The notes under the pieces are model-generated. The model did not search any database. It was not told the origin of the DNA and saw only the letters and a list, made by a program, of their open reading frames with translations. Below, in pieces: positions 8,518 through 42,894 of a stretch of DNA of 64,000 bases (position 1 is the first letter of the stretch; each line of letters starts with the position of its first letter). This DNA is from Dehalococcoidia bacterium (GTDB lineage: Bacteria > Chloroflexota > Dehalococcoidia > UBA6926), in contig CBDBNN010000003.1 of assembly GCA_965207895.1 (NCBI GenBank), positions 451,755 through 515,754 on the forward strand, in the 5' to 3' direction. Position numbers and translations under genes: made by a program.

Positions 8518-10065
8518 CTACGAACGTGCCAATTCCGTGTCAAGAAGAGCCGACGCTGCCGCGCGCGTCCTCGCCGCCGATCGATCCCGCCCGAGTGCTT
8601 CAAGCGTGACGAACAGTGGCGGCGCCGCTGTCCGCCCCGTTGTGGCGACGCGTATTGCGCCAAACAACTTGCGGCCGGACGTGCCAAGCTCTTCCACGAG
8701 TGCCCTGAAACGCGTCTCAATCGACTCATGATTCCACGGTTCGATCTTTTCAATGGCATTGGCGGCGGAGTTCAGCCACTCATGGACTACGTTCGCGTCA
8801 TCCGGCAATGAAATCTTCCACAGGTTCTCATTTGCGTCCGCCAAACGCTTCATTGCCTTGTCGCCCATCCCGGCCCAGATGAGCGCAGGAGGGAATGAGA
8901 CCTCATCAGTGAAGAAGAAGTCAGCCAGGTCCGGCAATTCACTCAGCACGCGCGCGCGATCCTGCGTCAGCGTGGCTGCTTGCCGGGCGAGTTCATTATC
9001 GAGCGGCCGGGCAATCTCGGGCGGCAGACCGCTATCCAGGTACGGGCGCGACGCCTCCACAAACGTCTCCGGCGCCATCTCGCGGATGTACACGCCGTTC
9101 AGCCATTCCAGCTTCTCGCGGTCGAACATTGCCGGTGAGGCCGAGACGCGGTCAAGCGAGAACCCCGCAATTAGTTCGTCTCGCGTCATCTGCGTCGTCT
9201 TGTCGTCCAGTGACCAACCTAAAAGGGCCAGGAAATTCAGCATCGCCTCGGGCAAGAATCCCTCATCACGGTAGTCGAGCAGCGAGACAGAGCCGTGCCG
9301 CTTGGACAACTTTGTCCGGTCTGAACCGAGAATCAGTGGAAGGTGCGCGAACACGGGTGGCGTATAGCCAAACGCCTCATAGATCATGGCGTGGCGCGGG
9401 GCGGATGACATCCACTCATCGCCGCGTATCACGTGCGTGATGGCCATAGCGACGTCATCCACCACGTTGGCGAGATGATAGGTGGGGAACCCGTCCGACT
9501 TGAGGATGACGAAATCGTCGATGAGCCGGTTCTCCCATGAAACATCACCCCGGATGATGTCCGTGAACGTTGTTCGTCCGCTGAGGGGAGTCTTGAAGCG
9601 TACGACGCGATGCTCGCTGTTCTCCGCCTCCTCCCGAGCGCGTTCCTCCGCGCTCAGGTTGCGGCAGCGGCGGTCATAGCCTGTGGGCACATTTCGTTTC
9701 TGCTGCGCGGCGCGGATTGCATCCAGCCTCTCAGGGGTGCAGTAGCAATAGTAGGCCGCGTCCAACTCGACGAGCCGCTCAGCCGCTACGCCGTAGCCCT
9801 CAAGCCGCTGCGACTGCACGTACGGCCCGTAGGGGCCGCCGATGTCCGGCCCTTCATCCCATTCAATGCCGAGCCATCGGAGGGAATCGAGAATCCGCTC
9901 CTCGCTGCCCGGGATGCGCCGCTCCTGGTCGGTGTCCTCAATCCGCACCGCGAAAACGCCGCCTGTGCTGCGCGCAAAGAGCCAGGCGAACAGCGCGCTC
10001 CGGATGTTGCCGACGTGCGGATCTCCCGTCGGGCTTGGCGCGTAGCGTGTTCGCGTCTCTGACAT
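8518..10065 (-). CDS. gltX: glutamate--tRNA ligase
   Basis: Class I HIGH motif HVGNIRSALF and KLSKRHG (KMSKS) motif. Length and overall layout of GluRS. Confidence 0.95.
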   Translation of the reverse strand: MSETRTRYAPSPTGDPHVGNIRSALFAWLFARSTGGVFAVRIEDTDQERRIPGSEERILDSLRWLGIEWDEGPDIGGPYGPYVQSQRLEGYGVAAERLVELDAAYYCYCTPERLDAIRAAQQKRNVPTGYDRRCRNLSAEERAREEAENSEHRVVRFKTPLSGRTTFTDIIRGDVSWENRLIDDFVILKSDGFPTYHLANVVDDVAMAITHVIRGDEWMSSAPRHAMIYEAFGYTPPVFAHLPLILGSDRTKLSKRHGSVSLLDYRDEGFLPEAMLNFLALLGWSLDDKTTQMTRDELIAGFSLDRVSASPAMFDREKLEWLNGVYIREMAPETFVEASRPYLDSGLPPEIARPLDNELARQAATLTQDRARVLSELPDLADFFFTDEVSFPPALIWAGMGDKAMKRLADANENLWKISLPDDANVVHEWLNSAANAIEKIEPWNHESIETRFRALVEELGTSGRKLFGAIRVATTGRTAAPPLFVTLEALGRDRSAARTRAAASALLDTELARS

Positions 10066-10077
10066 CGCAGTCTCATT

Positions 10078-11031
10078 CTAACCCAGCGAATCGACGAGCC
10101 GCGCATCCGTCGTCCCCGCCGTCAGCTCTGCCAGGCATTCTGAAAGGTCATCCGCGAGGGGTGACCGGACCACCAACGTTTCGCGGGTGACAGGATGCTC
10201 GAAGGTCAGGGAAAGCGCGTGCAAAAAGAGTCGCGGCACCGGATCACGACTGCCGCGCGCGTAGATGACGTCTCCGGCGACCGGGTGCCGCAGCGACGCG
10301 AAATGCACCCGAATCTGGTGTGGGCGTCCTGTTTGCGGCTTAGCCTCGGTCAGGGTGTAGCCGCCTTTCAGGTGCGCCAGCACGCTGTAGCGGGTTGTAG
10401 CGGGGCGGCCCGACGCCACGACGGCCATTCGTTGCCGATGCCTCGGATCGCGCCCCACTGATGCCTCAATGACGCCCGCCGGCGGTTCCAACAATCCTCG
10501 CAGCAGGGCGACGTACACCTTCTCTACGCTCCGGGACTGGAACTGCCGGGAAAGCGCCGTGTGCGCGGAGTCATTCTTGGCAATCAGCATCACGCCGGAC
10601 GTGTCCTTGTCCAGACGGTGGACGATTCCAGGCCTGTCATCGCCGCCAATCGTGGAAAGTGGACCCTCGCGGCCCAACAGCGCGTTCACTATGGTTCCTG
10701 TTGGGTGGCCGGGTCCGGGATGAACGGCGACGCCGGGCGGCTTGTCGATCGCGAGGATTTCGTCGTCCTCGTACAGCACAGGCAAGGGTGAATCTTCAGC
10801 GGACAGCCCAGCCGCACCGCCGGTTTCTATCTCGCCGATAATCGTGATCTCGTCGCCGGGTTCAATGCCATGCCCACGCTTGCGCGGTGTCACTCCGTTA
10901 ACACTCACGCGCCCATCCTGGATCAGCCGGCCAATCGCGGAACGTGAAACACTGGCGGTGAGCGTAGCAGCCAGATATCGATCGAGCCGCTTCTCCGCTG
11001 TGTCAGGCGGGACGGTCAGACGTGTCTCCAT
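10078..11031 (-). CDS. rluD: RluA-family 23S rRNA pseudouridine synthase (RluD-like)
   Basis: N-terminal S4 domain (RLDRYLA) and catalytic HRLDKDTSGVML motif. Confidence 0.85.
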   Translation of the reverse strand: METRLTVPPDTAEKRLDRYLAATLTASVSRSAIGRLIQDGRVSVNGVTPRKRGHGIEPGDEITIIGEIETGGAAGLSAEDSPLPVLYEDDEILAIDKPPGVAVHPGPGHPTGTIVNALLGREGPLSTIGGDDRPGIVHRLDKDTSGVMLIAKNDSAHTALSRQFQSRSVEKVYVALLRGLLEPPAGVIEASVGRDPRHRQRMAVVASGRPATTRYSVLAHLKGGYTLTEAKPQTGRPHQIRVHFASLRHPVAGDVIYARGSRDPVPRLFLHALSLTFEHPVTRETLVVRSPLADDLSECLAELTAGTTDARLVDSLG

Positions 11032-12946: not shown

Positions 12947-14563
12947 CAGTCGGAGTTTGGCGATGCGATACGCGGCGTTTGAGTCTCTTGTTTGGCAATC
13001 GACACTACATCCTCGGTCGGGATGGCCAAGGTCAGTTCGACGTTGTTGCTCCCGTCGATGGTGGCCCCGTCCAGGAGCAGCCCCAGCGCCTCCTTGCGCT
13101 CCTCGTCGGTCAGGTCGTCAAGCCTGCCGCCGAGCCGGTGTGCCCACTCGACGATGTGCTCGCCCAGCGCCCGCTTCTCCGCCTCGGCCATCTCCCTGGC
13201 TCGGTAGTCGTCCAGCTTCAGCCGGAGCGTCTCCAGCCGTTCAGTGATGAACTTGCGCTGGCGGTCGAGCTGCTTCTCGGTGATCTTCCCCGACACGTAG
13301 AGCCTTATGGCCCGGTCCTCCTCCAACTGCACCTTTTGCAACTCCCGCTCCGCAATGGCGATCTCCTCGACCAGCTCGCCGTTGTCCGCCCGCGAGTCCA
13401 TGGCCTCGATGCCGGCGACGATGACGCCGGGGTTCTCCAGCACCTTCTTGACCTCGCCCCAGACAAGCGCCTCAAGCCGCTCGGCCCTGATGTTGGGACG
13501 CTCCCGGCATTGCACGCCCTCATTCTCCATTCCGTAGCACCGGTAGTAGCGGCGGGGGGTGTCCAGGTCGTAGATGTAAGCCTTGCCCTTTCGCCTGGAG
13601 GTCTGGCGTCTCGTCCCACGGCAGCCCATGAGGTACCCGCACTCGGCGCACCTGACCAGGTGCTGCAAGAGATAGAAGAGCTTGGTGTTGCGGCCCGAAC
13701 GGGTCAGACGCTTCTTCTTGGTCTCCTGCGCCAGGTCCCATATCTCCTCGTCCACCACCGGGGGGAAGGGCACCTCGACCCACTCGTCCTCGGGTCGGTC
13801 GTACCGCCTCATCCCGTTCTCGGTGGCGACGTGGCGGCGCTTGCCGAAATACCAGGTGCCCTTGTATGCCTCGGTGCGTAGGATGCGGGTGACTATGGCG
13901 TCGTACCAGGGACCGACGGCCCTGGGCGTGGGGACGCCCTCGGCATTCAACTGCTTGGCGATGGCCGGAGCGCCCATGTCTTCGCGGACGTACATGCGGA
14001 AGACGCGGCGTACGACCTCGGCCTCCTTCTCCACGATCTCCGGCCTGCGGTTCTCGCTGAGTTCGTAGCCGTAGGGGACGTTGTTGACAGGGATGCGGCC
14101 CTGCTTGGCCGAGCCCCGCTTGCCCATCGAGGCCCTCTCCCGGAAGTTGTCCAGCTCGATCTTGCCGATGGCCGCCATCAGGCCGAAGGTCTTCATGTCG
14201 ATGGCGTCAAGGACAGCTTCCAGTTCTATCTGGTACGCCTCGACGACCTCCATGAGAGCGGCTGCGGGGTACATGCCCCGGCTGAGCCGGTCGGACTTCC
14301 AGCAGACGATGGTGTCGAAACGTCCCTGGCGGGCGTCGGCCAGCATCCGCTGGAACTCCGGGCGGTTCTTGGACCATCCTCTGCCCACCTCCTGGTAGCG
14401 CGCGGTAATGGTCAGTCCCCTGCGCTCGCAGTGGGCCTCCATGTCGCTGATCTGCTCGGAGATGGAGGTCTTGTCCTCCGTGTCCTGGCTCTTGTCCGAG
14501 ACGCGGGCGTAGATGGCCGCCCGTTTCGTTCCCGTCTGCCTATCGGTGGTACTCGTCGCCATG
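12947..14563 (-). CDS. large serine recombinase (phage-type serine integrase)
   Basis: N-terminal resolvase domain with catalytic AAIYARVSDKSQ, a recombinase domain, a Cys-rich zinc-ribbon region (CAECGYL...C...C) and a coiled-coil C-terminus. Start set to ATG MATSTTDRQ with AGGAGG 6 nt upstream. The longer track ORF is read-through. Confidence 0.9.
12991..13010. repeat. left copy of terminal imperfect inverted repeat (candidate att half-site)
   Basis: 16/20 match to the reverse complement of 31288-31307. Confidence 0.4.
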
Positions 14564-14590
14564 TCTGCCTCCTGTCGTGTCCCTGAAATA

Positions 14591-14622
14591 AAGAAGACCC
14601 GCCTCCTGTCGGGAGCGGGTCT
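14591..14622 (-). promoter_or_regulatory. stem-loop followed by a T-tract immediately upstream of the integrase RBS (terminator/attenuator-like)
   Basis: Minus strand reads gacccgctcccgacaggaggcgggtc then cttctttatttc, then the RBS and ATG of the integrase. Confidence 0.35.
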
Positions 14623-14900
14623 GCGAGTAGTACAATCACTTCGCATCACCTGTTCCCGCAGGTGGCGCCACGGCCCGGGGTGTTTGCAGCACCGCCGGGT
14701 CAACTTCTATCTGCCCTCCATTTTACCGCGCTGGGCTGGAGGGAGTCAAAACGCGTCACCGGTCGGTGCTGCCTCCATTTGAATTGCTGACGCCAATCCC
14801 AGATTACCGACTAGACGCCGGTGAACCATGTCAACGGTCTTGGTGGCAGGTATTTCAGCCGAGCCTAGGTGCCGCCAATGGGTTCGGCGGGAACCGTCAT

Positions 14901-15188
14901 TTACCAGATCCGATACCAGCCGGGGCTGACCACGGACATGATCCCCATGACGAGGATTGCAGCCATGGTAAGGACCCCAACGGCCCAGGCCGCCCCCAGG
15001 TCCCCGCTCAATCGCCACGTGGCCAGGAATGTCAAAGCGCCGCCAAGGACAGCCCAGGGGAGGACGCCGCTCTCAATGATCCATATGGCGATCAGAATGG
15101 CAGAGACTAGACCCGCTCCGACGAGCAGATATGCAGCCGCCAAGTTATCGGTCCCAGCGCTGCTTCGGGCTGAACGCCGTCGCCCCAT
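14901..15188 (-). CDS. small two-TM membrane protein
   Basis: Strong RBS AAGGGAGG 7 nt upstream of the ATG. Two hydrophobic helices (LAAAYLLVGAGLVSAILIAIWII, VGVLTMAAILVMGIMSVV). Confidence 0.45.
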   Translation of the reverse strand: MGRRRSARSSAGTDNLAAAYLLVGAGLVSAILIAIWIIESGVLPWAVLGGALTFLATWRLSGDLGAAWAVGVLTMAAILVMGIMSVVSPGWYRIW

Positions 15189-15383
15189 GCCCGTGCCTCC
15201 CTTTTTGAGATAGAATATCAGAGTTTTCTATCGGCACCAAGACCTTCTTGGTCCGAGTTTGGCACCCCTGGTCCACGATAGGGACTTCAAGAACTCCTTC
15301 AGGTCAGTGGAGGAAGCAGCACCTCCGCTGACAGAGGCGGAAAGCCCGTAGACCCTACCCTCCGCTCCTTACGGTGCGTTCGT

Positions 15384-16589
15384 TCACTCCTCCCGGTCGT
15401 TTCCCGAGAGTGCGCCTCGCAGCTCTATCGCCTGCCGCGTCCGGTCGAGTTCCGCGGCTAGGATCGTCTCCTCTGGCAGGGTGATGCGGTACTCCCCGGC
15501 CATGACGTTGTTGGGCAGGCCGTCGAGGGCGTACCGCGCCAACGCCTCGTCCTTCTCGGAGCAGAGGATGAGTCCCACGGGCGGGTTCTCGCCCTCTCGA
15601 ACCCAGTGCTCCCGCGCGTAGTTCAGGTAGAGGTGCATCTGTCCGGCGTCGGCGTGGGTGAACGCCCCGATCTTCAGGTCGATGACCACGAGACACCGCA
15701 GACCACGGTGGTAGAAGAGCAGGTCCACCCTGTACCACCTGTTGCCGATGCGCAGGCGCCTCTGCCTGCCCATGAAGCAGAAGTCGTCCCCCAGCTCCAT
15801 GAGAAAGGTCTCCAGGTGGCGGATGAGCGCGTCTTCAAGATCGCTCTCGGAGTACTCGTCCTTGAGGCCGAGGAACTCCAGGACGAAGGGGTCCTTGATC
15901 TGCTCCTGGGGCAGCACGGCGTCTTCGGCATTGGGCTTCCGTCCCGACGTGAGCATGGCAGCCTTGTTCTTGGACAGGGCGGTGCGCTCGTAGAACTGGG
16001 AGGCGATCTGTCGGTCTAGCTGACGGACCGACCACCCTCCCCTCAGCGCCTCCGTCTCGTAGAACTCGCGGGCCTGCTCGTCCCTGACCGACAGCAGCCT
16101 CACGTAGGCCGACCAGGGCAACGGGAAGGCTGACAGCAGGTCTTCGAAGCCTACGCCGTCCGATGCGGTCATGAATTCTCCCGACGCCGTCGAGAGAATC
16201 CTCTGTCGATGGGATGAAGCCGATTTTCCCGACACTGTCGGGAGAATCCGGTCAGACGGGAACGAGAGGTAGAAGAGACGCATCTTGTAGATGCCCTGGA
16301 GGGAGAAGCCCCGACCGAACCTTCCGGTCAGGTCCTCAGCCAGTCTCTCGATGAGCGCCGCCCCGTACTCGGCCCGCTCCTCTCCCGACTGCTCGAACTC
16401 GACGATGCGACGTCCTATCAGCCAGTACGCGGCGGTCATGGCGGCGTTCACCGACCGAGCGGCAGAGTCTCTGGCCGCGTCGATGATTCTCGACACGTCT
16501 CCGAAGACAGCCTCGTACGGGGCGTCGTGACTGAGGGTTGAACGCCTCAGTGATGGCTGATTGCGGTTGGGGGACATCTCGGATGGCAT
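15384..16589 (-). CDS. DUF1016 (YhcG/RhuM-like) PDDEXK-fold nuclease family protein
   Basis: C-terminal block RVDLLFYHRGLRCLVVIDLKIGAFTHADAGQMHLYLNY matches the restriction-endonuclease-like core of DUF1016 proteins (D...D/E-x-K arrangement: DLLFY ... IDLK). Confidence 0.75.
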   Translation of the reverse strand: MPSEMSPNRNQPSLRRSTLSHDAPYEAVFGDVSRIIDAARDSAARSVNAAMTAAYWLIGRRIVEFEQSGEERAEYGAALIERLAEDLTGRFGRGFSLQGIYKMRLFYLSFPSDRILPTVSGKSASSHRQRILSTASGEFMTASDGVGFEDLLSAFPLPWSAYVRLLSVRDEQAREFYETEALRGGWSVRQLDRQIASQFYERTALSKNKAAMLTSGRKPNAEDAVLPQEQIKDPFVLEFLGLKDEYSESDLEDALIRHLETFLMELGDDFCFMGRQRRLRIGNRWYRVDLLFYHRGLRCLVVIDLKIGAFTHADAGQMHLYLNYAREHWVREGENPPVGLILCSEKDEALARYALDGLPNNVMAGEYRITLPEETILAAELDRTRQAIELRGALSGNDREE

Positions 16590-16813
16590 CAGGCTTCCTC
16601 CTCCAAGTGGTTGTCCACTTGGACGTCCGGGAGCGCGTCCTTCTCGGACTCCGCTTGCCCGTCGCCGGCCGAGGGCCTGAGCAGCAGGGTGAAGAGACGG
16701 AGCAGCCGGTCCTCGGCGTCGGGTGCGGGCCTGGAGATGACCCTCACCTCCCCAAACTCCGAGAAGTCCTCTTCGGGCATCCGTCGCACTTTCGGTCTCC
16801 TCTTGTCGTTCAT
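16589..16813 (-). CDS. small ORF (73 aa, MNDKRRPKVRRMPEEDF...) translationally coupled to the DUF1016 nuclease
   Basis: Its TGA stop overlaps the ATG of the nuclease (TGATG). A diverged paralogous copy at about 18310-18095 lacks a stop, so that copy is decayed. Substitutions between the copies are enriched at third codon positions in this frame. Confidence 0.3.
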   Translation of the reverse strand: MNDKRRPKVRRMPEEDFSEFGEVRVISRPAPDAEDRLLRLFTLLLRPSAGDGQAESEKDALPDVQVDNHLEEEA

Positions 16814-17060
16814 CGTTCTCTTCGCCGGGCTCTCGTGAGCCCGCACCGGGCTGTCAATGTCGGCGGATCGCAGCCCTCGCCAGAGAGTGTGAACAACTCG
16901 AACGCCGAAAAAGACCTCACGCGTGGTGGCGCCACGGAAGGTCGCCAACGAACAAGCCTCTTCGCGCAGTATTGGGGGTGTACAGGAAATGGAGTTTGGT
17001 GACGAAGTGGCCTGAGTCGTGATTTCGTAGCTGAATCAGGGGCAAATCGCCCTCTACAGG
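16596..17060. repeat. copy A of a diverged ~450-bp duplication
   Basis: Aligns by eye to 18096-18560 at roughly 70-80% identity. Both copies end in gtga(t/g)ttcgtagctgaatcagg ... ctctacagg. Confidence 0.6.
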
Positions 17061-18095
17061 AGGTGGTCGGCGAGCAATCTGTTGAAAGGGTGGAGTTCGG
17101 TCGGCAATGACAAAAGCAGGCTTGAGGTGGGGGTGCATGACGCGGCCCAAATCGGCGGCCCGATGACAAAAGCGGCCAAAAGATGCGCTTGAGGTGGGGG
17201 TGCGTTACACCGGGCGAGACATCGCAAGAAACGCGGACCTGGTGGAAGGCAAAGCTGAAACGAGTTTGCGGGGAAGCAGGAAACTGCCATAGAGACGACC
17301 CAACACGGCCTCTAGGACAGCAAAGACCTGGAGCACATGTACCCCATGAGGCCCGGTCAGCTGGCACCACGCGGCGCTTTACGACACGCAGAGAGCGCGG
17401 GGCAGAAGCGAGGTTGCGTCCAGGGTGTGGCGGGCGCTCACGCAGAGGTGGTTGTGGCGGTAGTTGTGGAGCAATACGTTGCCCAAGGTCGCGCTGGAGC
17501 AATATCCGGGGTGGGGGCACGCATGGGGTCTTCTTGGTCTCGCAGATCGGTGATAATGACCTCACTGTTTGGCTTTCTCCAAGGTTTCCGACCACAGAAA
17601 CCTGGGTGCGTGATCCCTGTTGCACGGGCTTCGCCCAAGAGGGAATGCTGGCGATGCGGAGTTTGACGTTGGTCCTCCGCAACCAGCGCGGGCCGGATCG
17701 ACGGAGTTGACGCAGGGGCCTCCGTTTTCGGTCCAGTCCAGCGGGTTGGAGTTTGACGTTGGTCCTCCACTCGAAGGACATCTGCCTGACGTTCGGCGTT
17801 GATCGCTCCCTCCGTTGGGCACCGGTCTGACGGCTGGGGTTGATCGCCTCGCAGTCTGACCAGGGGGACGACGTGTTAGCGCATCGTCCCCGGCAAACTG
17901 GCCAAAGTGCGCCTGTCGCTTTGGCCAGTTCAGCACGTCTGCGGGATGGCTGGAACGCAGCCGCACCGCAGCTTCCGCACGCAGTTGATGGGGTGCGGTC
18001 CTGGCTGAGGGTTGACCGCCTCGCCGGAGACAGATGACGTTCGGATGCCAATGCTAAGTTGGAATTGACCCACCCCGATAGCGGGCGCATTGGGC

Positions 18096-18560
18096 TTCTG
18101 CCTCCAGGTGGTTGTCCACGAGTCGGTGATCCGAGGGCGGGTCCTTCTGGGACTTCCGCCTGCCTCTCCTCGTCCGTGGGCCTGAGCGGCAGGATGAAGA
18201 GGCGGCGCAGCCGGCCCTCGGCGTCGGGGGCAAGCCTGGAGATGACCCTGACCACGCCGCATTCGGAGAATCCCTCCTCGTGTATCCGTTGTCCGCTCCG
18301 TCTGCTCCTGTCGTTCATCACTCTCTTCACCGGGCTCGCGTGAGCCCCAAAAGGGCTATCAATGTCGGTCTGAATGCCATTGAGTCTGGGGAGCCGAGGG
18401 GCGAAAAAACACGGTCCGTGAGGGGGGCGCTCGCGGGATGCTCCCTCACGAGGTCTCCATCCCAAATGGCCGGATGTGATGTACTACCCGTGTACAAGGA
18501 AATGCGCCGGTTGCATAAATGCAAGTCGGTGGTGAGTTCGTAGCTGAATCAGGTTGGAGT
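18096..18560. repeat. copy B of the diverged ~450-bp duplication
   Basis: See copy A. Confidence 0.6.
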
Positions 18561-18775
18561 GGAGGGGTGTGGGGCCGTTGTTGCGAGCACTTCGAGATAA
18601 GGGCGGGTTCACCCGATTTGGGCGGAAGTTGCAGAAATGCAAGTCGGAAAAGCGGAACAGCGGAGCGCATCGCTGCTAAATCGGAGCGAGCGATTTGGGG
18701 AACGAGGCCTAAACCGGGCCGTGATGGCCTCTACAGGACGCCCCTATCGGACATGAACATGAGGAGGTTTGACGC

Positions 18776-19705
18776 ATGAACGAGGCAGAGTTGAACGGCA
18801 CGCGGGTTGAGGAGACCCAGGATGGCGGGAACCAGGACACCGACGTGTTGGACGATGAAACCCTGACGAGCGAAGTCGGGGACGGTGACGACGCGGACAA
18901 GGAGCGGATGCGGCGGCACAGGTTGAGGGGGTTCCTGCGGGAGCTGGTGCGGGAGGAGGGCCGGATGGAGGCTGCGGAACTACTGGGCGTTGCCTACCGC
19001 ACGCTGGTCAAGGCCGAGGAGACCGGCGAGATCACGGGACGCATGGGCGACGCCATCGAACGGCTGTCGAGCGCGGGCGACAGCCCGGAGGTGAAGCGGC
19101 TCAGGGAGTCGGTCGGAATGGTCGAGGAACGCATGGCCGCGTTGGAATCCGGCATGGGGGCGCTGGGGAAGGAGCTCCGGGACGGACTGGACAAGTTGCG
19201 CATTGCGGCGGCCGGCAAGTCCGATGCCGAGGGCGGCGGCGAGGAAGGGACCCAAGCGGAGGACGCGGGTGAGAAGAAGGCGGGCCGGTCGGAGACCGGG
19301 GCCGCACCTCCGGTGGCGGGCCTGCGCCCCAAAAAGCCCTTCAGGGAGCGGCGCAAGGAGCCCGAGGTGGTCACGGTGAAGCCTGCCGACGACGACCGGG
19401 AGGTCTACGGCAAAGCCTGGCCGCTCATCGAGGAGTGGCGCAGCCTGCGGACAGGTCACCCCAATGAAGGCAAGAGCCTGTCGTGGCTCACGACGCATGA
19501 GCGGCTGCTCGTGCTGGAACTGGCGATGCTGGAGGAGCACGGGCTGACCCTGCCGCCGGAGAAGCAGGCGCTCAGGGGGTTCGGGCGCAGTGGCCAGACC
19601 ACCTGGCGGTGGACGGCGCTGGCGGACACGAGGAAGTCCCTGGCAAGGCGGGAACTGCTGCGCTGGGTGCGCCGGGTCCTCACCGTGGGACTGTGGCGGG
19701 AGTAG
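18776..19705 (+). CDS. hypothetical DNA-binding protein with putative HTH and coiled-coil/charged regions
   Basis: Strong RBS GAGGAGG before the ATG. Segment AAELLGVAYRTLVKAEETGEI resembles an HTH. Flanked on both sides by related repeats (gctgctaaa ... cggagcgag(c/t)gatt). Confidence 0.55.
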   Translation: MNEAELNGTRVEETQDGGNQDTDVLDDETLTSEVGDGDDADKERMRRHRLRGFLRELVREEGRMEAAELLGVAYRTLVKAEETGEITGRMGDAIERLSSAGDSPEVKRLRESVGMVEERMAALESGMGALGKELRDGLDKLRIAAAGKSDAEGGGEEGTQAEDAGEKKAGRSETGAAPPVAGLRPKKPFRERRKEPEVVTVKPADDDREVYGKAWPLIEEWRSLRTGHPNEGKSLSWLTTHERLLVLELAMLEEHGLTLPPEKQALRGFGRSGQTTWRWTALADTRKSLARRELLRWVRRVLTVGLWRE

Positions 19706-19931
19706 GCCCCGGAGCCTGCCTTCGGGGCCGGTTTTCGGCGGCTGCTAAAGCGCAGCGACATGGGCGCTAACTCGGAGCGAGTGATTCACGCTGGGTTGAC
19801 CTGAAACCCCTTCCGAAGCCTTCCATTGCCTGTCCGACCAGGCGATAATTGACGCAGTTTCTGGCTTTTCCAGCGTTTCGTGCCGAGAAACCTGGAGGGT
19901 TCCCGTCCCCCGAATCCGGGACCGGCTGCAT

Positions 19932-20080
19932 AGGATCGAGCCTCGCTCTCCGAACAGCCGCCCAGGGGTCAGACCGGAAGGATTGAGCCTCGCTCTCCCG
20001 ATGGTCTCCCCGGAGGGACAAACGCCTTCCCGCTGCGTGAGCCGGTCGAGGGGTCGAGCCGTTGCTCCTCCGATGCCGTC
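19932..20080. repeat. three imperfect ~30-bp direct repeats (iteron-like) upstream of the 4xHTH gene
   Basis: ggatcgagcctcgctctccgaacagccgcc / ggattgagcctcgctctcccgatggtctcc / gggtcgagccgttgctcctccgatgccgtc at about 50-70 bp spacing. Confidence 0.5.
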
Positions 20081-20749
20081 TCGGAAGTCGGGACACCACC
20101 GTAGCGAGTACGGTGCAGACTCTCGCCGAGGTGCGCCCAGCGTCCCGGCCATTCCTCATGCCTGCGGCGCAAACGTCACGCGGTTGGGTCGCAGCTTCAA
20201 CGCACGCCGTCCTGCTATGACTCCGCATGGCTGCGTCGCTCTCACGGCACCGGTCTCGGACCGATCTGCAGGCCGGACGCATTTCCTCTCACAGCAGCTC
20301 CCCGGTCCGCATCCCCGTGATATGACCCTGGACGAGCTGCGTTTTTCTCACCCCACTTCGTCCCCGCGTCCGGCATCCGACCGTGGGCGAAGTGCGTCTT
20401 GCGTCAAACGAACCCATCACACACACAACCCGCGCCCCGGATGCCGCGCGGGTCAGCAACATCAATATCAAGGAGGTGCACATGCACGTTGAGTAGTTAG
20501 TAGGCGAGACCAAGGGCGCCGGAGTCGGCATTGACGGCTTCACGCCCCCGCCTCTCGCACACAAGGCCCCCATAACAGTTGGCGAGCAAAGGGCCGCTTC
20601 TTCCTCCGCGCGAGGAAGGGTGGCCCTTCTCTTTGCCAGCAACGAACCCACGGAGACGGTCCCGGCTGCCGGGACATCAATTCGAGCGGGACTGTCTCCG
20701 CCCCACGGGGTGGCGGCCGTCCCGCTTCTTCATTGAAAGGAGAAGCGAC

Positions 20750-21907
20750 ATGACGACGGCAACCACACCAACGACCAATCGGCAGAACACGACGGAGACA
20801 ACGACGGATGCGGCAACGCCCGTTGAGGCCATGGGCAAGCCTGAGAGCGAACTCAGGGCGGTGGCCAGGAAGAAGGGCCTCACCATGAGGGAGCTTGCGG
20901 CCCTGATGGGCGTGAGCGCCAGCCACCTCTCCCAGGTCGGCACGGGCAAGAAGCCCTGGACCCCCAACCTGCGGGAGAAGGCGATGGCTGTGCTGGGCGA
21001 GGTCCCAGGACAGGGCTTCGTCTACCGACAGCGCGGCGAGGTCAATTCGGAGAGCAGCTACATCCGGGAGCAGGCACGGACGATGGGCTACACCATGCGG
21101 GAACTCTCCGACCGGTCGGGGGTGAGCTACTCCTACCTCACCCAGGTGGCCCGTGGCCGCCGCAACATGGGCGTCAAGGTGCAGGCCAGCATCGAATCGG
21201 CTCTTGGGGTGGCGGCCAGGGTCGCTCCGGCCAAGCTCGCCAACCGTCAGGGCGAGGTGGTCGAAGGGACGGACAGCAGCTTCATCCGGGAGACCGCCCG
21301 CGCCCTCGGCATCACCATGCGGGAGCTGGCCGAGAAGGTGGGCGTGTCCGCCGGGTACCTGTCCCAGGTGTCACGCGGGCACAGGAGCATGGGCGTGAAG
21401 CTTCAGGCTCGGGTCGAGGCTGTGCTTGGAGGGCGTGCGAAGGTCGCTTCCGCCCAGTGCCCCGACATCGACCGCCAGTTCATCTGGGAGCAGATGGACG
21501 CGCTAAACGTCAGCCAGAACGAGGTCGCGAGGCGGGCGGGCATCAGCTCCGGTCACCTCTCCCAGATCATGAACGGCCAGCGCAGCCCGTCCGCCGTGGT
21601 CATCAGAAAGCTGCACGGGGCGCTGTTCCGGCGCAGCCAAGACCCGCAGCGGGTGATGCCCGTTGCCATGAAGGTCCTGGGCTGGAAGAAGGGTGAGCGC
21701 AGCGGGATGGTGGTGCACGGCGCCCGTGGCCGGGACGGCACTGCCAGGGGCGGCGCGGTGCGCGTCGGCGGCCGGGTGCCCTGGGGCGCGAAGGTGGAGT
21801 ACGCCTTCCGCGCCGGGTACGACGGCAGGGGCAAGGTGTCGGTGGACCACGTGGTGGCGCCGAGCTGCTCCGCCCTGTTGATGCGGCCGGAGCCTACGAC
21901 CGCTTAA
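20750..21907 (+). CDS. protein with four tandem XRE-type helix-turn-helix domains
   Basis: Four repeats of the pattern (L/Y/I)TMRELAxxxGVSxxYLSQVxRGxR(S/N)M. RBS AAAGGAGAAG before the ATG at 20750. Gly/Arg-rich C-terminus. Confidence 0.75.
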   Translation: MTTATTPTTNRQNTTETTTDAATPVEAMGKPESELRAVARKKGLTMRELAALMGVSASHLSQVGTGKKPWTPNLREKAMAVLGEVPGQGFVYRQRGEVNSESSYIREQARTMGYTMRELSDRSGVSYSYLTQVARGRRNMGVKVQASIESALGVAARVAPAKLANRQGEVVEGTDSSFIRETARALGITMRELAEKVGVSAGYLSQVSRGHRSMGVKLQARVEAVLGGRAKVASAQCPDIDRQFIWEQMDALNVSQNEVARRAGISSGHLSQIMNGQRSPSAVVIRKLHGALFRRSQDPQRVMPVAMKVLGWKKGERSGMVVHGARGRDGTARGGAVRVGGRVPWGAKVEYAFRAGYDGRGKVSVDHVVAPSCSALLMRPEPTTA

Positions 21908-21915
21908 GCGCAAAG

Positions 21916-21954
21916 AGAGGGAGGCCATCGGAAGTTGATGGTCTCCCTCTCTAC
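21916..21954. terminator. strong hairpin (16-bp stem, one mismatch) followed by a T-run
   Basis: agagagggaggccatc ggaagtt gatggtctccctctct, then cgctttttgg. Sits between the convergent 4xHTH gene and the R-M operon end. Confidence 0.6.
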
Positions 21955-22274
21955 CGGGCACATATATGTCGCTTTTTGGCGTTGCCGAAATGTCTACGCT
22001 CGTATCAGACGTGTACTGAGAGACAATTGGCGCCAGTTGGCTGCGGCAATAAGCAGTCTCCCGAAAAGCGGCATCACCTGCCGGTTCAACATCCGCTCGT
22101 CTCTAGCTTCGGTAGCCCCTTGTTCTCTCCTTAGACCAGCGCCAGGATAGCCTCAATCTGTCCCACATCTATCTGAGAGGGTACAGCGATATTCTTCTGC
22201 GGCCCTGAGGCGGGCTGAACGGCGGGCGAGGCTTGGCTCACAGTCGGAGTCCCGCTCATTTGTCCGTGCAGCCA

Positions 22275-23003
22275 TCACAGGGGCAGCGACTCTCCGCTCT
22301 CCCGAAGATGCTGGCGACGCCGCTGCGCGTCCGGCATCACCGAAGCAATGAGTGTCCAGAACTCCGGTGAGTGGTCCCGGTGGGTCAGGTGCGCCAATTC
22401 GTGGACGACGACGTATTCCATCAGCGCCGGTTTCACCATCATGGCGCGCCAGTTGAAGCGCAGCGTCCCGTCGGGCGCGCAACTTCCCCAACGCTGACGC
22501 TGGTCGCGCACCAGCACACGAATCCTATCTCCATGTCCAAGCCGCGGCGTCCACCGTTCGACGACCTCTTCAAGTCTCTCTTGGGCGCGCGAGCGGTACC
22601 AGCGCACTACTGCTCGGCGGATCGACTCGTAGCGTTCATCGCCGCTCAGTCCCTTCGGGGCGGCGACCCGGAACCTCCAGTGATCGAAGCGGACTTCCGC
22701 CCTGCGCACGTCTGCGTCCTCCACAACCATGCGGACGTTGCGGCCCAGATAGGGTAGCGTCTCCCCGCTCACGAAGCGCTTGGGGGCGGTTTCCAGCATC
22801 CGGTCCGAGGCGTGACTCAGTATCCAGCCAGCCCGCTTCCGCACAATGGCGCGCAATTCGTTGACGGGCGTGGTCGTCGGCGCGACGACCTGCACCCCGC
22901 CGCCATCCACCGTGATCTGGACGGTCTTCCTGCGCCGACTGCTGCGTCGCACCTCGTAGTCGATGCTGGTATCGCCGAAGCGTACACGGCCCTCCTCGGT
23001 CAC
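22275..23003 (-). CDS. DUF45/YgjP-like zinc metallopeptidase (WLM/SprT-like)
   Basis: HELAHLTHRDHSPEFW zinc-binding motif. GTG start overlaps the hsdR stop (GTGA). This family is commonly linked to Type I R-M loci. Confidence 0.8.
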   Translation of the reverse strand: MTEEGRVRFGDTSIDYEVRRSSRRRKTVQITVDGGGVQVVAPTTTPVNELRAIVRKRAGWILSHASDRMLETAPKRFVSGETLPYLGRNVRMVVEDADVRRAEVRFDHWRFRVAAPKGLSGDERYESIRRAVVRWYRSRAQERLEEVVERWTPRLGHGDRIRVLVRDQRQRWGSCAPDGTLRFNWRAMMVKPALMEYVVVHELAHLTHRDHSPEFWTLIASVMPDAQRRRQHLRESGESLPL

Positions 23004-36107: not shown

Positions 36108-36184
36108 TGGCGCGCCCGGCAGGATTCGAACCCGCGACCCTCGGTTCCGAAGACCGATGCTCTACTCCACTGAGCTACGGGCGC
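36108..36184 (-). tRNA. tRNA-Arg (TCG)
   Basis: Cloverleaf by eye: acceptor GCGCCCG/CGGGCGC, D arm GCTCAGTGGAGTAGAGC, anticodon stem TCGGT/ACCGA with loop CTTCGGA, T arm GCGGG-TTCGAAT-CCTGC, discriminator G and encoded CCA. Confidence 0.8.
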
Positions 36185-40194: not shown

Positions 40195-42894
40195 CTACCC
40201 GCCCTCCGGCGCGTCGCTCACACGCTCCCAGAATCGCTTTAGTTCTACCTTCAGGGGCGCATGTTTGTCCTGCGATAACTCCGGGTCATGCGCCGCGACG
40301 GCCAGCGCATGCCGCCGCGCCTCTTCAATGAGCGCCAGATCGGCGAATGTCGCGACCTGCAGGTCCGGCAGTCCGCTTTGTCGCGTGCCAAGAAGTTCTC
40401 CCGGTCCGCGCAATTGAAGGTCGGCCTCCGCCACCTTGAATCCGTCGCTCGTGTTCTCCATCACCGATAGCCGTTTATTGACCTCTTCCGTGTCTGACTC
40501 AGAGACAAGGATGCAGTAGCTGTTCTCCGTGCCGCGCCCCACTCGTCCCCGGTACTGGTGCAGCTGGGACAGGCCGAAGCGATCCGCTCCGTCAATCATC
40601 ATCACCGTCGCGTTGGGAACGTCGATACCGACCTCTACAACAGCAGTAGACACAAGCACGTCAACATCACCCCCGTGCAGCGCGTCCATGACGCGATCCT
40701 TCTCCGCAGCCCGCATCCGGCCGTGGAGCAGCCCAACGCTCAGGTCAGGAAAGACCTCCCGGGAGAGTCGTTCATGCTCTGCCACCGCCGCCTTGGCCGC
40801 CACAGCCTCGGACTCCTCGACCAGTGGGCAGATGATGAATGATTGCCGACCCTCTCCCGCCTCTCTGCGGATGAATCCGTAAGCCCGCTCGCGCTCGTGC
40901 GGCGGGACAATGGCAGTTCTGATGGGCGGCCTTCCGGGTGGCATCTCATGAATGGTTGAAACATCCAGGTCGCCATAGATCGCAAGCGCCAGCGTGCGCG
41001 GGATAGGGGTTGCGGTCATGACGAGCAGGTGTGGTGCAAAGCCCTTGTTGCGGAGCGAGGCCCGCTGCTCAACGCCAAACCGGTGCTGCTCGTCCACCAC
41101 CGCAAGTCCGAGATTATTGAAAGCGACCCCTTCCTGGATCAGCGCGTGTGTGCCGATGACGATATCAACGTCGCCCCGGGCGATGAGATCATGCAGCTGC
41201 GATTTCGCGCCTGCCGCCATGCTGCCCGTCAGGCGAGCGATGCGGAGCGGTCTGTCCGGCAGGATTCCGCTGAAGCCTCGATAGGGACCTCCGTCATTCG
41301 CCTCCCGGTTTCCGTAACTGAAGACGCCCGTGAGGGTACGGAAATGCTGTTCCGCAAGCACCTCCGTCGGGGCCATCAAAGCACCCTGGAAGCCGTTCGC
41401 CGCGGCTGTCACGAGGGCCAGCGCCGCGACAACCGTCTTGCCACTGCCAACGTCGCCCTGCAAGAGCCGCATCATCGGCGCGCTCCCGCCAATGTCCGTC
41501 AGTATCTCTTCCACCACATGATCCTGGTCGGCCGTCAGCGTGAAGGGCAGGGCGCTCAGCACATTCTTGACAGCCTCGTCGCTGCGCGGGATCGGCGCGC
41601 CAAGCTCTCGCTGCTGCTGCCTCCGCCGTTCCAGCAAACCGAGTTGGAGGAGGAAGAGTTCATCGAACGCCAGCCGACGGCGCGCCCGCTCGTCGTCGGA
41701 CAAGTCCGAGGGGTGATGAATGAGGCCGAGGGCCTGTCGCAGCCCCGGCAGGTTCGCCGTTCGAATGATGTCATCCGGCAAGAATTCCTCTACGAGCGGC
41801 AGCGCCCGTTCCGCCGCCGGGCCGATCAGCCGCCTCATCCCGCTCTGTGTCACCCCTTTGGTAAGCGGGTAAATGGGGACTAACTCGCCGGCAGCCATCC
41901 TGTCCTCAGCCCGAAGCTGCTCATACGTCTCCACCTGGAACTGCGCCCGGTTGCGATATTCTCCAAGCCGACCAATCAGGAGCAGCCGCGCCCCTTTCTT
42001 GAGATTTCTCATGACCCACGGGTTGCCGAACCAGACCGCCTTCACCTGCCCCGTGGCATCGCTGACCGCCGCCTCGACGCGCATGACCTGGCGGCCCCTG
42101 GTGTAGCCTCCCCCGCCCGCCCTCTCAACGCGAACGGAGATAGCGGTCTGCTCCCCGTAGGTCAGCCGTGCGATGGGTGAGACGGGCACGTACCGCCGTG
42201 GAAAAGCCCAGAGCGCATCGCGATACGTCTCAACGCCCAGCTTTCCAAGGCCCGCCTTCATTCGCGATGGCGCGTCCAACGGGTCATCGAGCGACGTGAC
42301 CGGCGTCACCTTTGGAGCGGGCTTGGGAACATTGCGCCGCGTTGGTTTGGGCGGCGCGATCCTCTCTGCCGGGGATCGATGTTCCGTTCTCGAACGAGTA
42401 GTCGAGACTTCTTCCACCCGATCCCAACCCGGGTCGGGCGGCACGTCCATCCGTTGCGGAGGCTGTCGTCGTTCCACCGTGTCCGCGGTGACAGGGCCAC
42501 GTGTGGCGCCGGGATTTTCTGACGGTTCGTGCACTCTCTCCGTCTGAGGCCGCTCCGAATCCGAGACTGGCTCGGAATCGCGCAGTTGTTCCAGTGTCTC
42601 GCGTATCCACGCTGCGCGCGCGTCCGGCAGCAGATCGTCATAACCTGGCAGACCGATGCCCGCTACATCCAACGCGCGCTTAACGTCCGGGTCTTCAATC
42701 CATCTCTCAAGGAATGCGTCCAGTCCGCCGATGACGGCGCGGTTTGCGTGGTTCTGGTCGCGTTCAAGGCGCAGAACATGGCGAATTGTTTCAACTTTGC
42801 GCGTGACGCGCTCGTCCTGTGCCGCAGGGGTAGACGATGGCTCGCTTTGAGATGCGCGGCTGGGGCCGACAGGCAAGCGGCCCTGTGTCATGGT
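40195..42894 (-). CDS. recG: ATP-dependent DNA helicase RecG with a long low-complexity N-terminal extension
   Basis: Walker A GDVGSGKT, DEQHRFG motif, TATPIPRTL and RGRVGRG motifs. Start moved to MTQGRL, just downstream of the DegV stop. About 240 N-terminal residues are Pro/Glu/Arg/Thr-rich. Confidence 0.9.
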   Translation of the reverse strand, partial: TMTQGRLPVGPSRASQSEPSSTPAAQDERVTRKVETIRHVLRLERDQNHANRAVIGGLDAFLERWIEDPDVKRALDVAGIGLPGYDDLLPDARAAWIRETLEQLRDSEPVSDSERPQTERVHEPSENPGATRGPVTADTVERRQPPQRMDVPPDPGWDRVEEVSTTRSRTEHRSPAERIAPPKPTRRNVPKPAPKVTPVTSLDDPLDAPSRMKAGLGKLGVETYRDALWAFPRRYVPVSPIARLTYGEQTAISVRVERAGGGGYTRGRQVMRVEAAVSDATGQVKAVWFGNPWVMRNLKKGARLLLIGRLGEYRNRAQFQVETYEQLRAEDRMAAGELVPIYPLTKGVTQSGMRRLIGPAAERALPLVEEFLPDDIIRTANLPGLRQALGLIHHPSDLSDDERARRRLAFDELFLLQLGLLERRRQQQRELGAPIPRSDEAVKNVLSALPFTLTADQDHVVEEILTDIGGSAPMMRLLQGDVGSGKTVVAALALVTAAANGFQGALMAPTEVLAEQHFRTLTGVFSYGNREANDGGPYRGFSGILPDRPLRIARLTGSMAAGAKSQLHDLIARGDVDIVIGTHALIQEGVAFNNLGLAVVDEQHRFGVEQRASLRNKGFAPHLLVMTATPIPRTLALAIYGDLDVSTIHEMPPGRPPIRTAIVPPHERERAYGFIRREAGEGRQSFIICPLVEESEAVAAKAAVAEHERLSREVFPDLSVGLLHGRMRAAEKDRVMDALHGGDVDVLVSTAVVEVGIDVPNATVMMIDGADRFGLSQLHQYRGRVGRGTENSYCILVSESDTEEVNKRLSVMENTSDGFKVAEADLQLRGPGELLGTRQSGLPDLQVATFADLALIEEARRHALAVAAHDPELSQDKHAPLKVELKRFWERVSDAPEGG

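Follow-up and report, generated by a model that had tools for sequence, protein, structure and literature searches.

A conserved, hairpin-bearing non-coding region at the head of the establishment genes in a family of Dehalococcoidia conjugative elements

The window analysed here is a stretch of 64,000 nucleotides (nt) from a Dehalococcoidia genome (assembly GCA_965207895.1, contig CBDBNN010000003.1), with a guanine plus cytosine (GC) content of about 62%. Within it, p309, a gene for a putative helix-turn-helix (HTH) regulator, is followed on the same strand by a non-coding region and then by a gene whose product carries four HTH_3 domains (the 4xHTH gene). We find that this non-coding region contains tandem, covarying hairpin modules, that it is conserved in 86 related loci, and that it belongs with p309 and an operon of establishment genes in a family of integrative conjugative elements. 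An initial annotation had pointed to three imperfect direct repeats in this place, at a spacing of about 50-70 bp, and three related units are indeed present, with starts at 19933, 19980 and 20051 (47 and 71 nt start-to-start); we refer to them as U1, U2 and U3. The comparison covers 80 loci fetched from genome assemblies, nearly all of them metagenome-assembled genomes of Dehalococcoidia, and six more fetched around far more distant p309 homologues (about 35% identical), giving a total of 86. In the nearest public sequence, OZ242299.1, the p309 protein match is 98% identical. The gene and the principal features downstream of it are listed below by window position.

18776..19705, plus strand: p309, an HTH regulator gene, modelled with a Cro/XRE-like N-terminal domain, a coiled coil, a disordered linker and a helical C-terminal domain
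19817..20013, plus strand: near-invariant non-coding core, majority-base frequency 0.92-0.93 (78 sequences)
19828..19843, plus strand: hairpin P0, GCCTG tccgac CAGGC, stem and variable loop read from the alignment
19844..19849 and 19849..19854, plus strand: invariant GATAAT and TTGACG, directly 3' of P0
19870..19895, plus strand: helix Pa, CCAG c GTTTC ... GAAAC CTGG, 97.8% of alignment cells paired
19897..19917, plus strand: helix Pb, GGGTT ... AATCC, with covariation
19919..19964, plus strand: U1, basal stem CGGCTG/CAGCCG, internal loops CATA and GAA, GGA/TCC, a 2-nt bulge, GAGC/GCTC, loop CTC
19967..20011, plus strand: U2, architecture as in U1, basal stem AGACCG/TGGTCT
20038..20083, plus strand: U3, architecture as in U1, within a 77-nt insertion or deletion (indel) at 20014-20090
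20091..20472, plus strand: remaining conserved non-coding region, with predicted hairpins at 20096-20114 and 20162-20194 and a block TCCGACCGTGGGCGAAGTGCGTC at about 20374-20398

The core at 19817-20013 is under purifying selection and is more conserved than the first and second codon positions of the gene that precedes it: in the C-terminal domain of p309, its best conserved part, the majority-base frequency is 0.88, 0.89 and 0.80 at codon positions 1, 2 and 3. Even in the six distant loci the core can be recognised, and the repeats, whose absence from related elements would have refuted the reading of the initial annotation, are conserved across the 86 loci under purifying selection. Conservation extends to the ribosome-binding site of the next gene, and the gap after p309 comprises 650-770 nt of non-coding DNA in related loci. 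Between 19706 and 20579 no open reading frame (ORF) has the pattern of GC content at codon positions 1, 2 and 3 (GC1/GC2/GC3) that is typical of real genes, the GC content of the region being 0.64-0.70. A protein-coding gap was rejected on this lack of a coding signature and on the 77-nt indel, which would break the frame.

All units share a three-tier hairpin, consisting of a basal stem, an internal loop of 3-4 nt on each side, a GGA/UCC helix, a 2-nt bulge, a GAGC/GCUC helix and a loop of 3-4 nt. The top of the unit is conserved in sequence and its loop is variable; the basal stems differ in sequence among U1, U2 and U3 and among lineages, with complementarity kept (for U1, CGGCUG/CAGCCG in the window versus CGACCG/CGGUCG in distant loci). 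Covariation was assessed against slid registers of the same helices and against 500 shuffles. Among 41 distinct units of the U2/U3 type, 79.9% of cells are paired, compared with 36-49% in slid registers, and double changes occur in 54 cells, compared with 29.9 +/- 4.0 after shuffling (0/500 shuffles as high); in the top helix of these units, A-U alternates with G-C. The helices of the core were examined in a 36-sequence alignment of 19853-19965, distant loci included, in which 97.2% of the cells of Pa, Pb and U1 are paired (29-50% in slid registers) and double changes affect 7 pairs and 30 cells, against 3.2 +/- 1.1 pairs and 5.7 +/- 3.0 cells in shuffles (0/500). Pair 54-71 of Pb is AU in 16 sequences, GU in 11 and GC in 9, and its pair 56-69 is UA in 27, CG in 6 and UG in 2; Pa shows a single double change, U-A to G-C, in locus L084. 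By inspection, the stem variants of P0 (GCTCG/CGGGC, GCCCG/CGGGC and GCCTG/CAGGC) also keep their pairing. Because the compensatory changes fall in basal stems of variable sequence, which is not the signature of a double-stranded protein site, the units are structured modules of a folded single strand and not double-stranded iterons.

The position and orientation of the modules are equally constant. A covariance model of the unit, trained on 41 related units with U1-type and 46-nt units excluded, scores U2 at 65.9 bits, U3 at 34.8 bits and U1 at 31.2 bits in the window. The next-best match anywhere in the window (17 bits, E = 0.026) lies at 41698-41739 inside a long ORF, and is most likely due to chance. 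Across the 86 loci the model detects 167 units, all on the p309 (plus) strand and all at the same place, with one array per locus within 5-6 kb either side. Counted by motif, two units are present in 53 loci and three in 22, and the 77-nt segment that holds U3 is found in only about 40% of related loci. Tandem Repeats Finder did not detect the units, since they are not arranged head-to-tail. In Rfam 15 the only matches at gathering score in the window were tRNAs, with nothing relevant at E <= 1 in 14500-22500; the core motif had no match among viral contigs, and PLSDB plasmids gave neither a DNA nor a protein match.

The family in which this region occurs is a multi-copy integrative conjugative element of Dehalococcoidia. 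Its minus strand carries a type IV secretion system (T4SS) operon, composed of a VirB4/TraC ATPase, two pilin-like genes, a gene of about 575 amino acids, TrbL_3/VirB6 and a gene of about 200 amino acids. On the plus strand are p309, the non-coding gap, a small membrane protein, a 150-amino-acid protein, a DnaG-like primase (which follows in 45 of the 80 loci), Rad52, DUF7007, TSCPD, SSB, and RadC or a Cas4-like exonuclease. Gene order is constant across related loci, and p309 stands where the transfer and establishment genes diverge. In L084 inserted genes part p309 from the units, which remain beside the downstream operon. Relatives of p309 number more than 800, with several copies per genome; 260 protein relatives occur in the genome collection, which suggests an element family far exceeding the 86 loci compared here. 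Among the genes within 5-6 kb either side we saw neither a relaxase nor a coupling protein, and a literature search for a described conjugative element of Dehalococcoidia returned nothing relevant.

Several peculiarities of individual loci were recorded in the course of this comparison. One of the genomes has a sponge-type bin name, and a 2.6-kb contig carrying p309 and the non-coding region (L004, JAPPFQ010000604.1) is binned as Acidobacteriota; all other loci are from Dehalococcoidia or Chloroflexota, and this is probably a misbinned copy of a multi-copy mobile element. An IS110-family transposase lies between the T4SS operon and p309 in L016 (4810-5772), as well as in L022 and L024. In L086, a distant copy of the element, a gene with DACNG and DACNH domains (9045-10736) occupies the place of the primase and Rad52 genes of other copies, and thus the cargo downstream of the control region varies.

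The window itself contains no homologue of any T4SS, primase, Rad52 or SSB gene, and the p197 and p150 genes are likewise absent. On its left side, a large serine recombinase, a YhcG nuclease and a 75-amino-acid gene take the place of the secretion genes. The integrative element proposed by the initial annotation is in broad terms a correct description of the family, whereas the copy in the window is a cut-down derivative without secretion genes, beside a large serine recombinase. What remains of the establishment operon, and the 4xHTH gene that now follows, are as follows.

20470..20496, plus strand: remnant of the first gene of the downstream operon, AAGGAGG, then ATG CAC GTT GAG TAG
20637..20749, plus strand: real leader of the 4xHTH gene, about 115 nt, with alternative hairpins
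20750..21907, plus strand: 4xHTH gene, four HTH_3 domains, variable cargo present in about 28 of the 80 loci

At 20470-20500 the window has a four-codon ORF (MHVE) followed by TAGTTAGTAG; at the corresponding place in L081, AGGAGG is followed by ATGCACGTTTGG..., the start of a 76-amino-acid membrane protein. The segment in the window is a decayed version of the beginning of this small membrane-protein gene, with which the establishment operon starts in related elements. The repeats had originally been placed in the leader of the 4xHTH gene, an assignment that the related loci contradict: the units follow p309 with or without that gene, 52 of the 80 unit-bearing loci have no 4xHTH gene, and where it occurs elsewhere it lies about 2.4 kb from the repeats, behind two other genes. 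The apparent 1-kb leader in the window is a deletion product, since the start of the establishment operon has been lost from between the two, and the units belong with p309 and the establishment operon rather than with the 4xHTH gene. For annotation in general, a 1-kb "leader" can be a deletion scar. Within the real leader, 20685-20700 pairs either with 20651-20664 or with 20707-20726, the latter followed by CTTCTTCATT, and compensatory changes occur in the small hairpin and in the long-range stem across 23 loci; judged from these pairings, the leader looks like an attenuator working as a terminator/antiterminator switch.

The island in which the p309 module sits (12946-35255) adjoins housekeeping genes and ends before a tRNA-Arg gene at 36108-36184. 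Its cargo includes the large serine recombinase, the YhcG nuclease, a YgjP metallopeptidase, an HNH protein, ThiF, a DUF433 protein and a type I restriction-modification system (hsdR, hsdS and hsdM, with unknown genes between them). To the left of p309, a segment of about 520 bp is duplicated (16524-17040 and 17998-18553) at about 80% identity, and the copies lie 1.5 kb from each other. The duplicated segment spans the 5' end of YhcG, the 75-amino-acid minus-strand gene (16589-16815) and the region upstream of this small gene. In the second copy of the small gene (about 18090-18320) the stop codon is missing, and this copy looks degenerate. Another stretch without a coding signature, about 1.1 kb long (16950-18090), has almost no DNA match in related loci and contains repeats of its own: GGAGTTTGACGTTGGTCCTCC, a perfect direct repeat of 21 nt, occurs at 17658 and 17748, and GCTTGAGGTGGGGGTGC occurs at 17120 and 17187. 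A 551-amino-acid ORF on the minus strand (16810-18465) was rejected as spurious.

Sequence signals of a different kind lie on both sides of p309, where the initial annotation had correctly located related sequences bracketing the gene (18668-18698 and 19737-19790); these contain a 21-nt box on each side.

18510..18526, no strand assigned: palindrome 1, GTTGCATAAATGCAAGT, a 17-nt operator-like site upstream of p309
18628..18644, no strand assigned: palindrome 2, GTTGCAGAAATGCAAGT, 17 nt, 118 bp past palindrome 1
18675..18695, plus strand: upstream box copy, GCTAAATCGGAGCGAGCGATT, about 80 nt 5' of the p309 start codon
19705..19738, plus strand: intrinsic-terminator-like hairpin of p309, GGCCCCG..CGGGGCC then GGTTTTCGG, as read from the sequence
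19741..19786, plus strand: downstream box, GCTAACTCGGAGCGAGTGATT, with a weaker half copy (19741-19758) and a full copy (19766-19786)

The 64 kb contain exactly two copies of the box, GCTAAMTCGGAGCGAGYGATT, one at 18675-18695 and one at 19766-19786, both on the plus strand, and none of 100 shuffled sequences contained an exact 21-nt pair of this kind. It is thus shared by the regulator's own upstream region and the head of the downstream region, and is conserved at both sites across loci: the core of the upstream copy, CATCGGAGCRAGCAAT, is conserved in 75 loci and shows no hairpin covariation, and the downstream copy, just 3' of the terminator hairpin, is more loosely conserved. The terminator consensus, GCCCCGGAG..CTCCGGGGC followed by CGGTTTTCGG, is also maintained across loci. 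We considered the box as a hairpin and rejected this, because its 5' half varies without compensating changes; it is a sequence motif.

The two palindromes, which the initial annotation had missed, compare with 0.04 copies expected by chance in the window. The family consensus is TTCCCAAAAGGGAA (TTCCC..GGGAA), the window version TTGCA..TGCAA, and both arms of both palindromes have switched to the latter wherever the HTH of p309 reads LGVAYRTLVK, the alternative HTH being LGVN[YH]KTL[AT]R. This tracking of palindrome type with HTH type points to p309 as the protein that binds both palindromes, although shared ancestry, which links the two features, could also be the cause. The 21-nt box, unlike the palindromes, does not switch with HTH type. 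The notion of an autoregulated operator, which the initial annotation had attached to the repeats, is plausible for the box and the two upstream palindromes, and does not suit the hairpin units. Immediately 5' of the p309 ribosome-binding site, about 40 nt before the start codon, the family consensus also has two tandem copies of CCCCTACAGGACA; the corresponding repeat in the window (18728-18755) is degenerate (gcctctacaggacgcccctatcggaca).

The protein encoded by p309 belongs to no Pfam, NCBIfam or PHROG family, a weak HTH hint apart. Its structure model is poor (a predicted local distance difference test score, pLDDT, of 57), Foldseek searches with the N-terminal domain gave Cro/XRE-like matches that were all weak, and a profile search of the PDB yielded coiled-coil noise and nothing else.

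We favour, with a probability of roughly 45%, the interpretation of 19739-20472 as a structured 5' leader, or cis control region, which heads the establishment operon and whose transcription would start at the second box. Under this scheme p309, the regulator of the element, would most likely act through the two palindromes (18510 and 18628) to repress its own, divergent promoter region, and its transcription would end at the hairpin at 19705-19738. The second box copy, a twin of the one before p309, would mark a new transcription start, from which a transcript would open with a leader of about 700 nt. The first 250-330 nt of this leader would fold into P0, Pa and Pb, followed by the two or three module copies U1 to U3, and the conserved module top (GGAUYGAGC-loop-GCUCUCC, with its 2-nt bulge) would probably be bound by a protein or by RNA polymerase. 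Such binding might set how much transcription or translation reaches the downstream genes (small membrane protein, p150, DnaG-like primase, Rad52, SSB and RadC), by processive antitermination, attenuation or transcript stability. Deletion of the downstream operon in the window has brought the region up against the 4xHTH gene. The data show the conservation, the lack of a coding signal, the covarying hairpin architecture, the constant position and strand, the element context and the link of palindrome type to HTH type of p309; we infer that RNA is the folding molecule, that the box acts as a promoter or operator, and that the hairpins have regulatory targets downstream.

Several observations lead us to this preference. 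The order of elements, with a terminator and then a shared box ahead of the region, fits a leader, as does conservation that reaches the next ribosome-binding site. A mild bias in the pairs leans to the plus strand, the one that is sense for the downstream genes: wobble-type cells exceed A.C-type cells by 25 to 9 in the core alignment and by 59 to 34 in the unit alignment, in a count uncorrected for shared ancestry. Moreover, the leader of the 4xHTH gene, in the same element family, is also attenuator-like, with its compensatory changes in 23 loci, and there is precedent in EGeRS1 and in the long leaders of pLS20-type plasmids (PMC8708921, PMC8191782, PMC13401043). Other results count against a leader RNA. 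The folding energy of the units is equal on both strands, and alignment-level z-scores did not separate the strands (segment C, with only 4 sequences, was unusable); the wobble bias of about 2:1 is modest and ancestry-blind, and G.T pairs are also tolerated in single-stranded DNA. Promoter and terminator scans of the window and two related loci gave no sigma-70-like promoter and nothing above shuffles, and given the lack of an Rfam match no known RNA mechanism can be assigned. Finally, elements that have lost both the T4SS and the primase operon (in the window, L020, L029 and L051) retain the region almost unchanged, which a DNA-transfer signal explains at least as well.

Such a signal, acting as single-stranded DNA, is the rival that we take most seriously, though we consider it doubtful. 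The region would then be an origin of transfer (oriT), with a relaxase hairpin and a nick site, and/or a set of priming or single-strand initiation (ssi) sites at which the element's DnaG-like primase would begin the complementary strand, and p309 would be a relaxosome accessory protein. The location agrees, since the region lies exactly at the junction of the T4SS operon and genes of the leading or establishment type, where an oriT is looked for. So do the fixed polarity of hairpins with bulges and internal loops, the primase gene that follows in so many loci, the near-invariance of the region across elements with diverged proteins, and the failure to find a sigma-70 promoter. A diverse lineage without a T4SS but with a serine recombinase, whose p309 is 58-63% identical to the window copy, keeps both p309 and the region, as a mobilisable element would need to. 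However, neither a relaxase nor a coupling protein was seen nearby, a hairpin repeated two or three times in tandem would be unusual in an oriT, and the number of units differs from locus to locus; conservation that runs on to the ribosome-binding site of the next gene, and a terminator and promoter-like box ahead of the region, also speak against this reading.

The remaining alternatives appear considerably less likely. Double-stranded sites for p309 or the 4xHTH protein, whether operators or the replication-origin iterons proposed by the initial annotation, are improbable, even though a dimer could bind the imperfect palindrome that forms the unit top (GGAtcGAGC-ctc-GCTCtCC), the region is flanked by HTH genes, a primase gene is near in most loci, and a separate box is common to the upstream region of p309 and this one. 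Double-stranded recognition has no need of compensatory changes in Pa, Pb and non-conserved basal stems, nor of stems that are kept while loops vary. The units number only two or three at irregular spacing, p309 has no Rep domain, and neither a Rep-type initiator nor an AT-rich unwinding region is present. Furthermore, the units are invariant across the HTH types of p309, whereas the upstream palindromes switch with them, and most loci that keep the units (52 of 80) do so without the 4xHTH gene. A stand-alone small RNA instead of an operon leader (one that works in immunity or copy control, for example, or that partners an unknown protein) would be in line with the compactness of the most conserved part (19817-20013), with its distance of 450-650 nt from the next start codon, and with its survival in the window after the loss of the downstream operon. 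We nevertheless hold this to be unlikely, as scans detected no terminator after the units, conservation carries on downstream, and Rfam holds no match.

Returning to the favoured leader, a more specific form of it is possible, if appreciably less probable than the general one: the region may encode a previously undescribed structured RNA of about 250-450 nt whose two or three tandem protein-binding hairpins gate the establishment genes of Chloroflexota conjugative elements, for instance through processive antitermination, with a factor loaded onto RNA polymerase. If true, this would also serve as a mechanistic model for the EGeRS1-type regions of Gram-positive plasmids, which still lack an explanation. 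How establishment genes are switched on in new hosts is understood for only a few plasmids, and the widespread EGeRS1 still has no known mechanism. Our analysis defines a structured non-coding element, supported by covariation and lying outside Rfam, that is more strictly conserved than the neighbouring protein in conjugative elements of uncultured Dehalococcoidia, and it outlines the element family itself together with its T4SS-less derivatives. Those derivatives that keep only the regulator and this region, with a serine recombinase, are candidate mobilisable elements.

Among described systems, the closest in outline is EGeRS1 of pLS20-type plasmids, a conserved region of 400-600 bp, rich in inverted repeats, that lies upstream of establishment genes without a strong promoter (PMC8708921). 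The region described here similarly comprises several hundred conserved non-coding base pairs before establishment genes, with multiple inverted repeats predicted to fold in RNA or single-stranded DNA; as in EGeRS1, a strong housekeeping promoter is not detectable, and the mechanism of EGeRS1 is likewise unexplained (PMC8708921). However, EGeRS1 is found in 4-5 copies per plasmid, before different operons, as opposed to one copy per locus within 6 kb either side here; the host phylum (Bacillota for EGeRS1) and base composition differ, and tandem hairpins of a single module have not been described for EGeRS1. Likened in this way by description, and with no DNA match in PLSDB, the region would be an analogue of EGeRS1 and not a member. 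The conjugation operon of pLS20 combines long structured leaders with antitermination (PMC8191782, PMC13401043), and there is a similar resemblance to lambda nut, HK022 put and conAn of pLS20 (PMC8191782) in the placing of hairpins after a Cro-like regulator and a terminator, ahead of replication and recombination genes. In contrast to these, the present region has no sequence or Rfam similarity, no N-like or ConAn1-like partner has been identified, and no downstream terminators have been demonstrated.

For the signals around p309, the nearest counterpart is Reg576 of plasmid p576, a ribbon-helix-helix protein that binds dual TTATCCC heptamers in a Reg576/EGeRS2 repressor-operator regulon (PMC6294495). 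In both cases a short motif is common to the promoter regions of the regulator gene itself and of the establishment genes, an arrangement that would give transient expression after transfer; judged by sequence, the 21-nt box before and after p309 may fit this logic, and the palindromes may fit autoregulation. Unlike Reg576, p309 belongs to an unnamed family of HTH proteins, and the box is the same whichever HTH type it has. The Frpo sequences of the F and ColIb-P9 leading regions are also non-coding and strand-specific, form hairpins and precede early genes, ssb among them (PMC9849209). Yet Frpo consists of a single long hairpin in which -35 and -10 boxes are rebuilt (PMC9849209); scans found no such boxes here, and in Frpo the template strand folds, whereas the wobble bias here weakly favours the sense strand of the downstream genes. 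With oriT and with ssi sites of the G4/RSF1010 type the region shares its position at the junction of T4SS and leading region, conserved hairpins of fixed polarity and a primase of the element close by; it departs from them in having no relaxase identified nearby and in its repeated identical modules, which would be atypical. Replication iterons are direct repeats at regular, helix-phased spacing, which the units lack, and the U3 indel is absent from about 60% of loci. In summary, a structured regulatory or processing region heading conjugative establishment genes is of a known kind, whereas the family, the modular hairpin and the host group are new.

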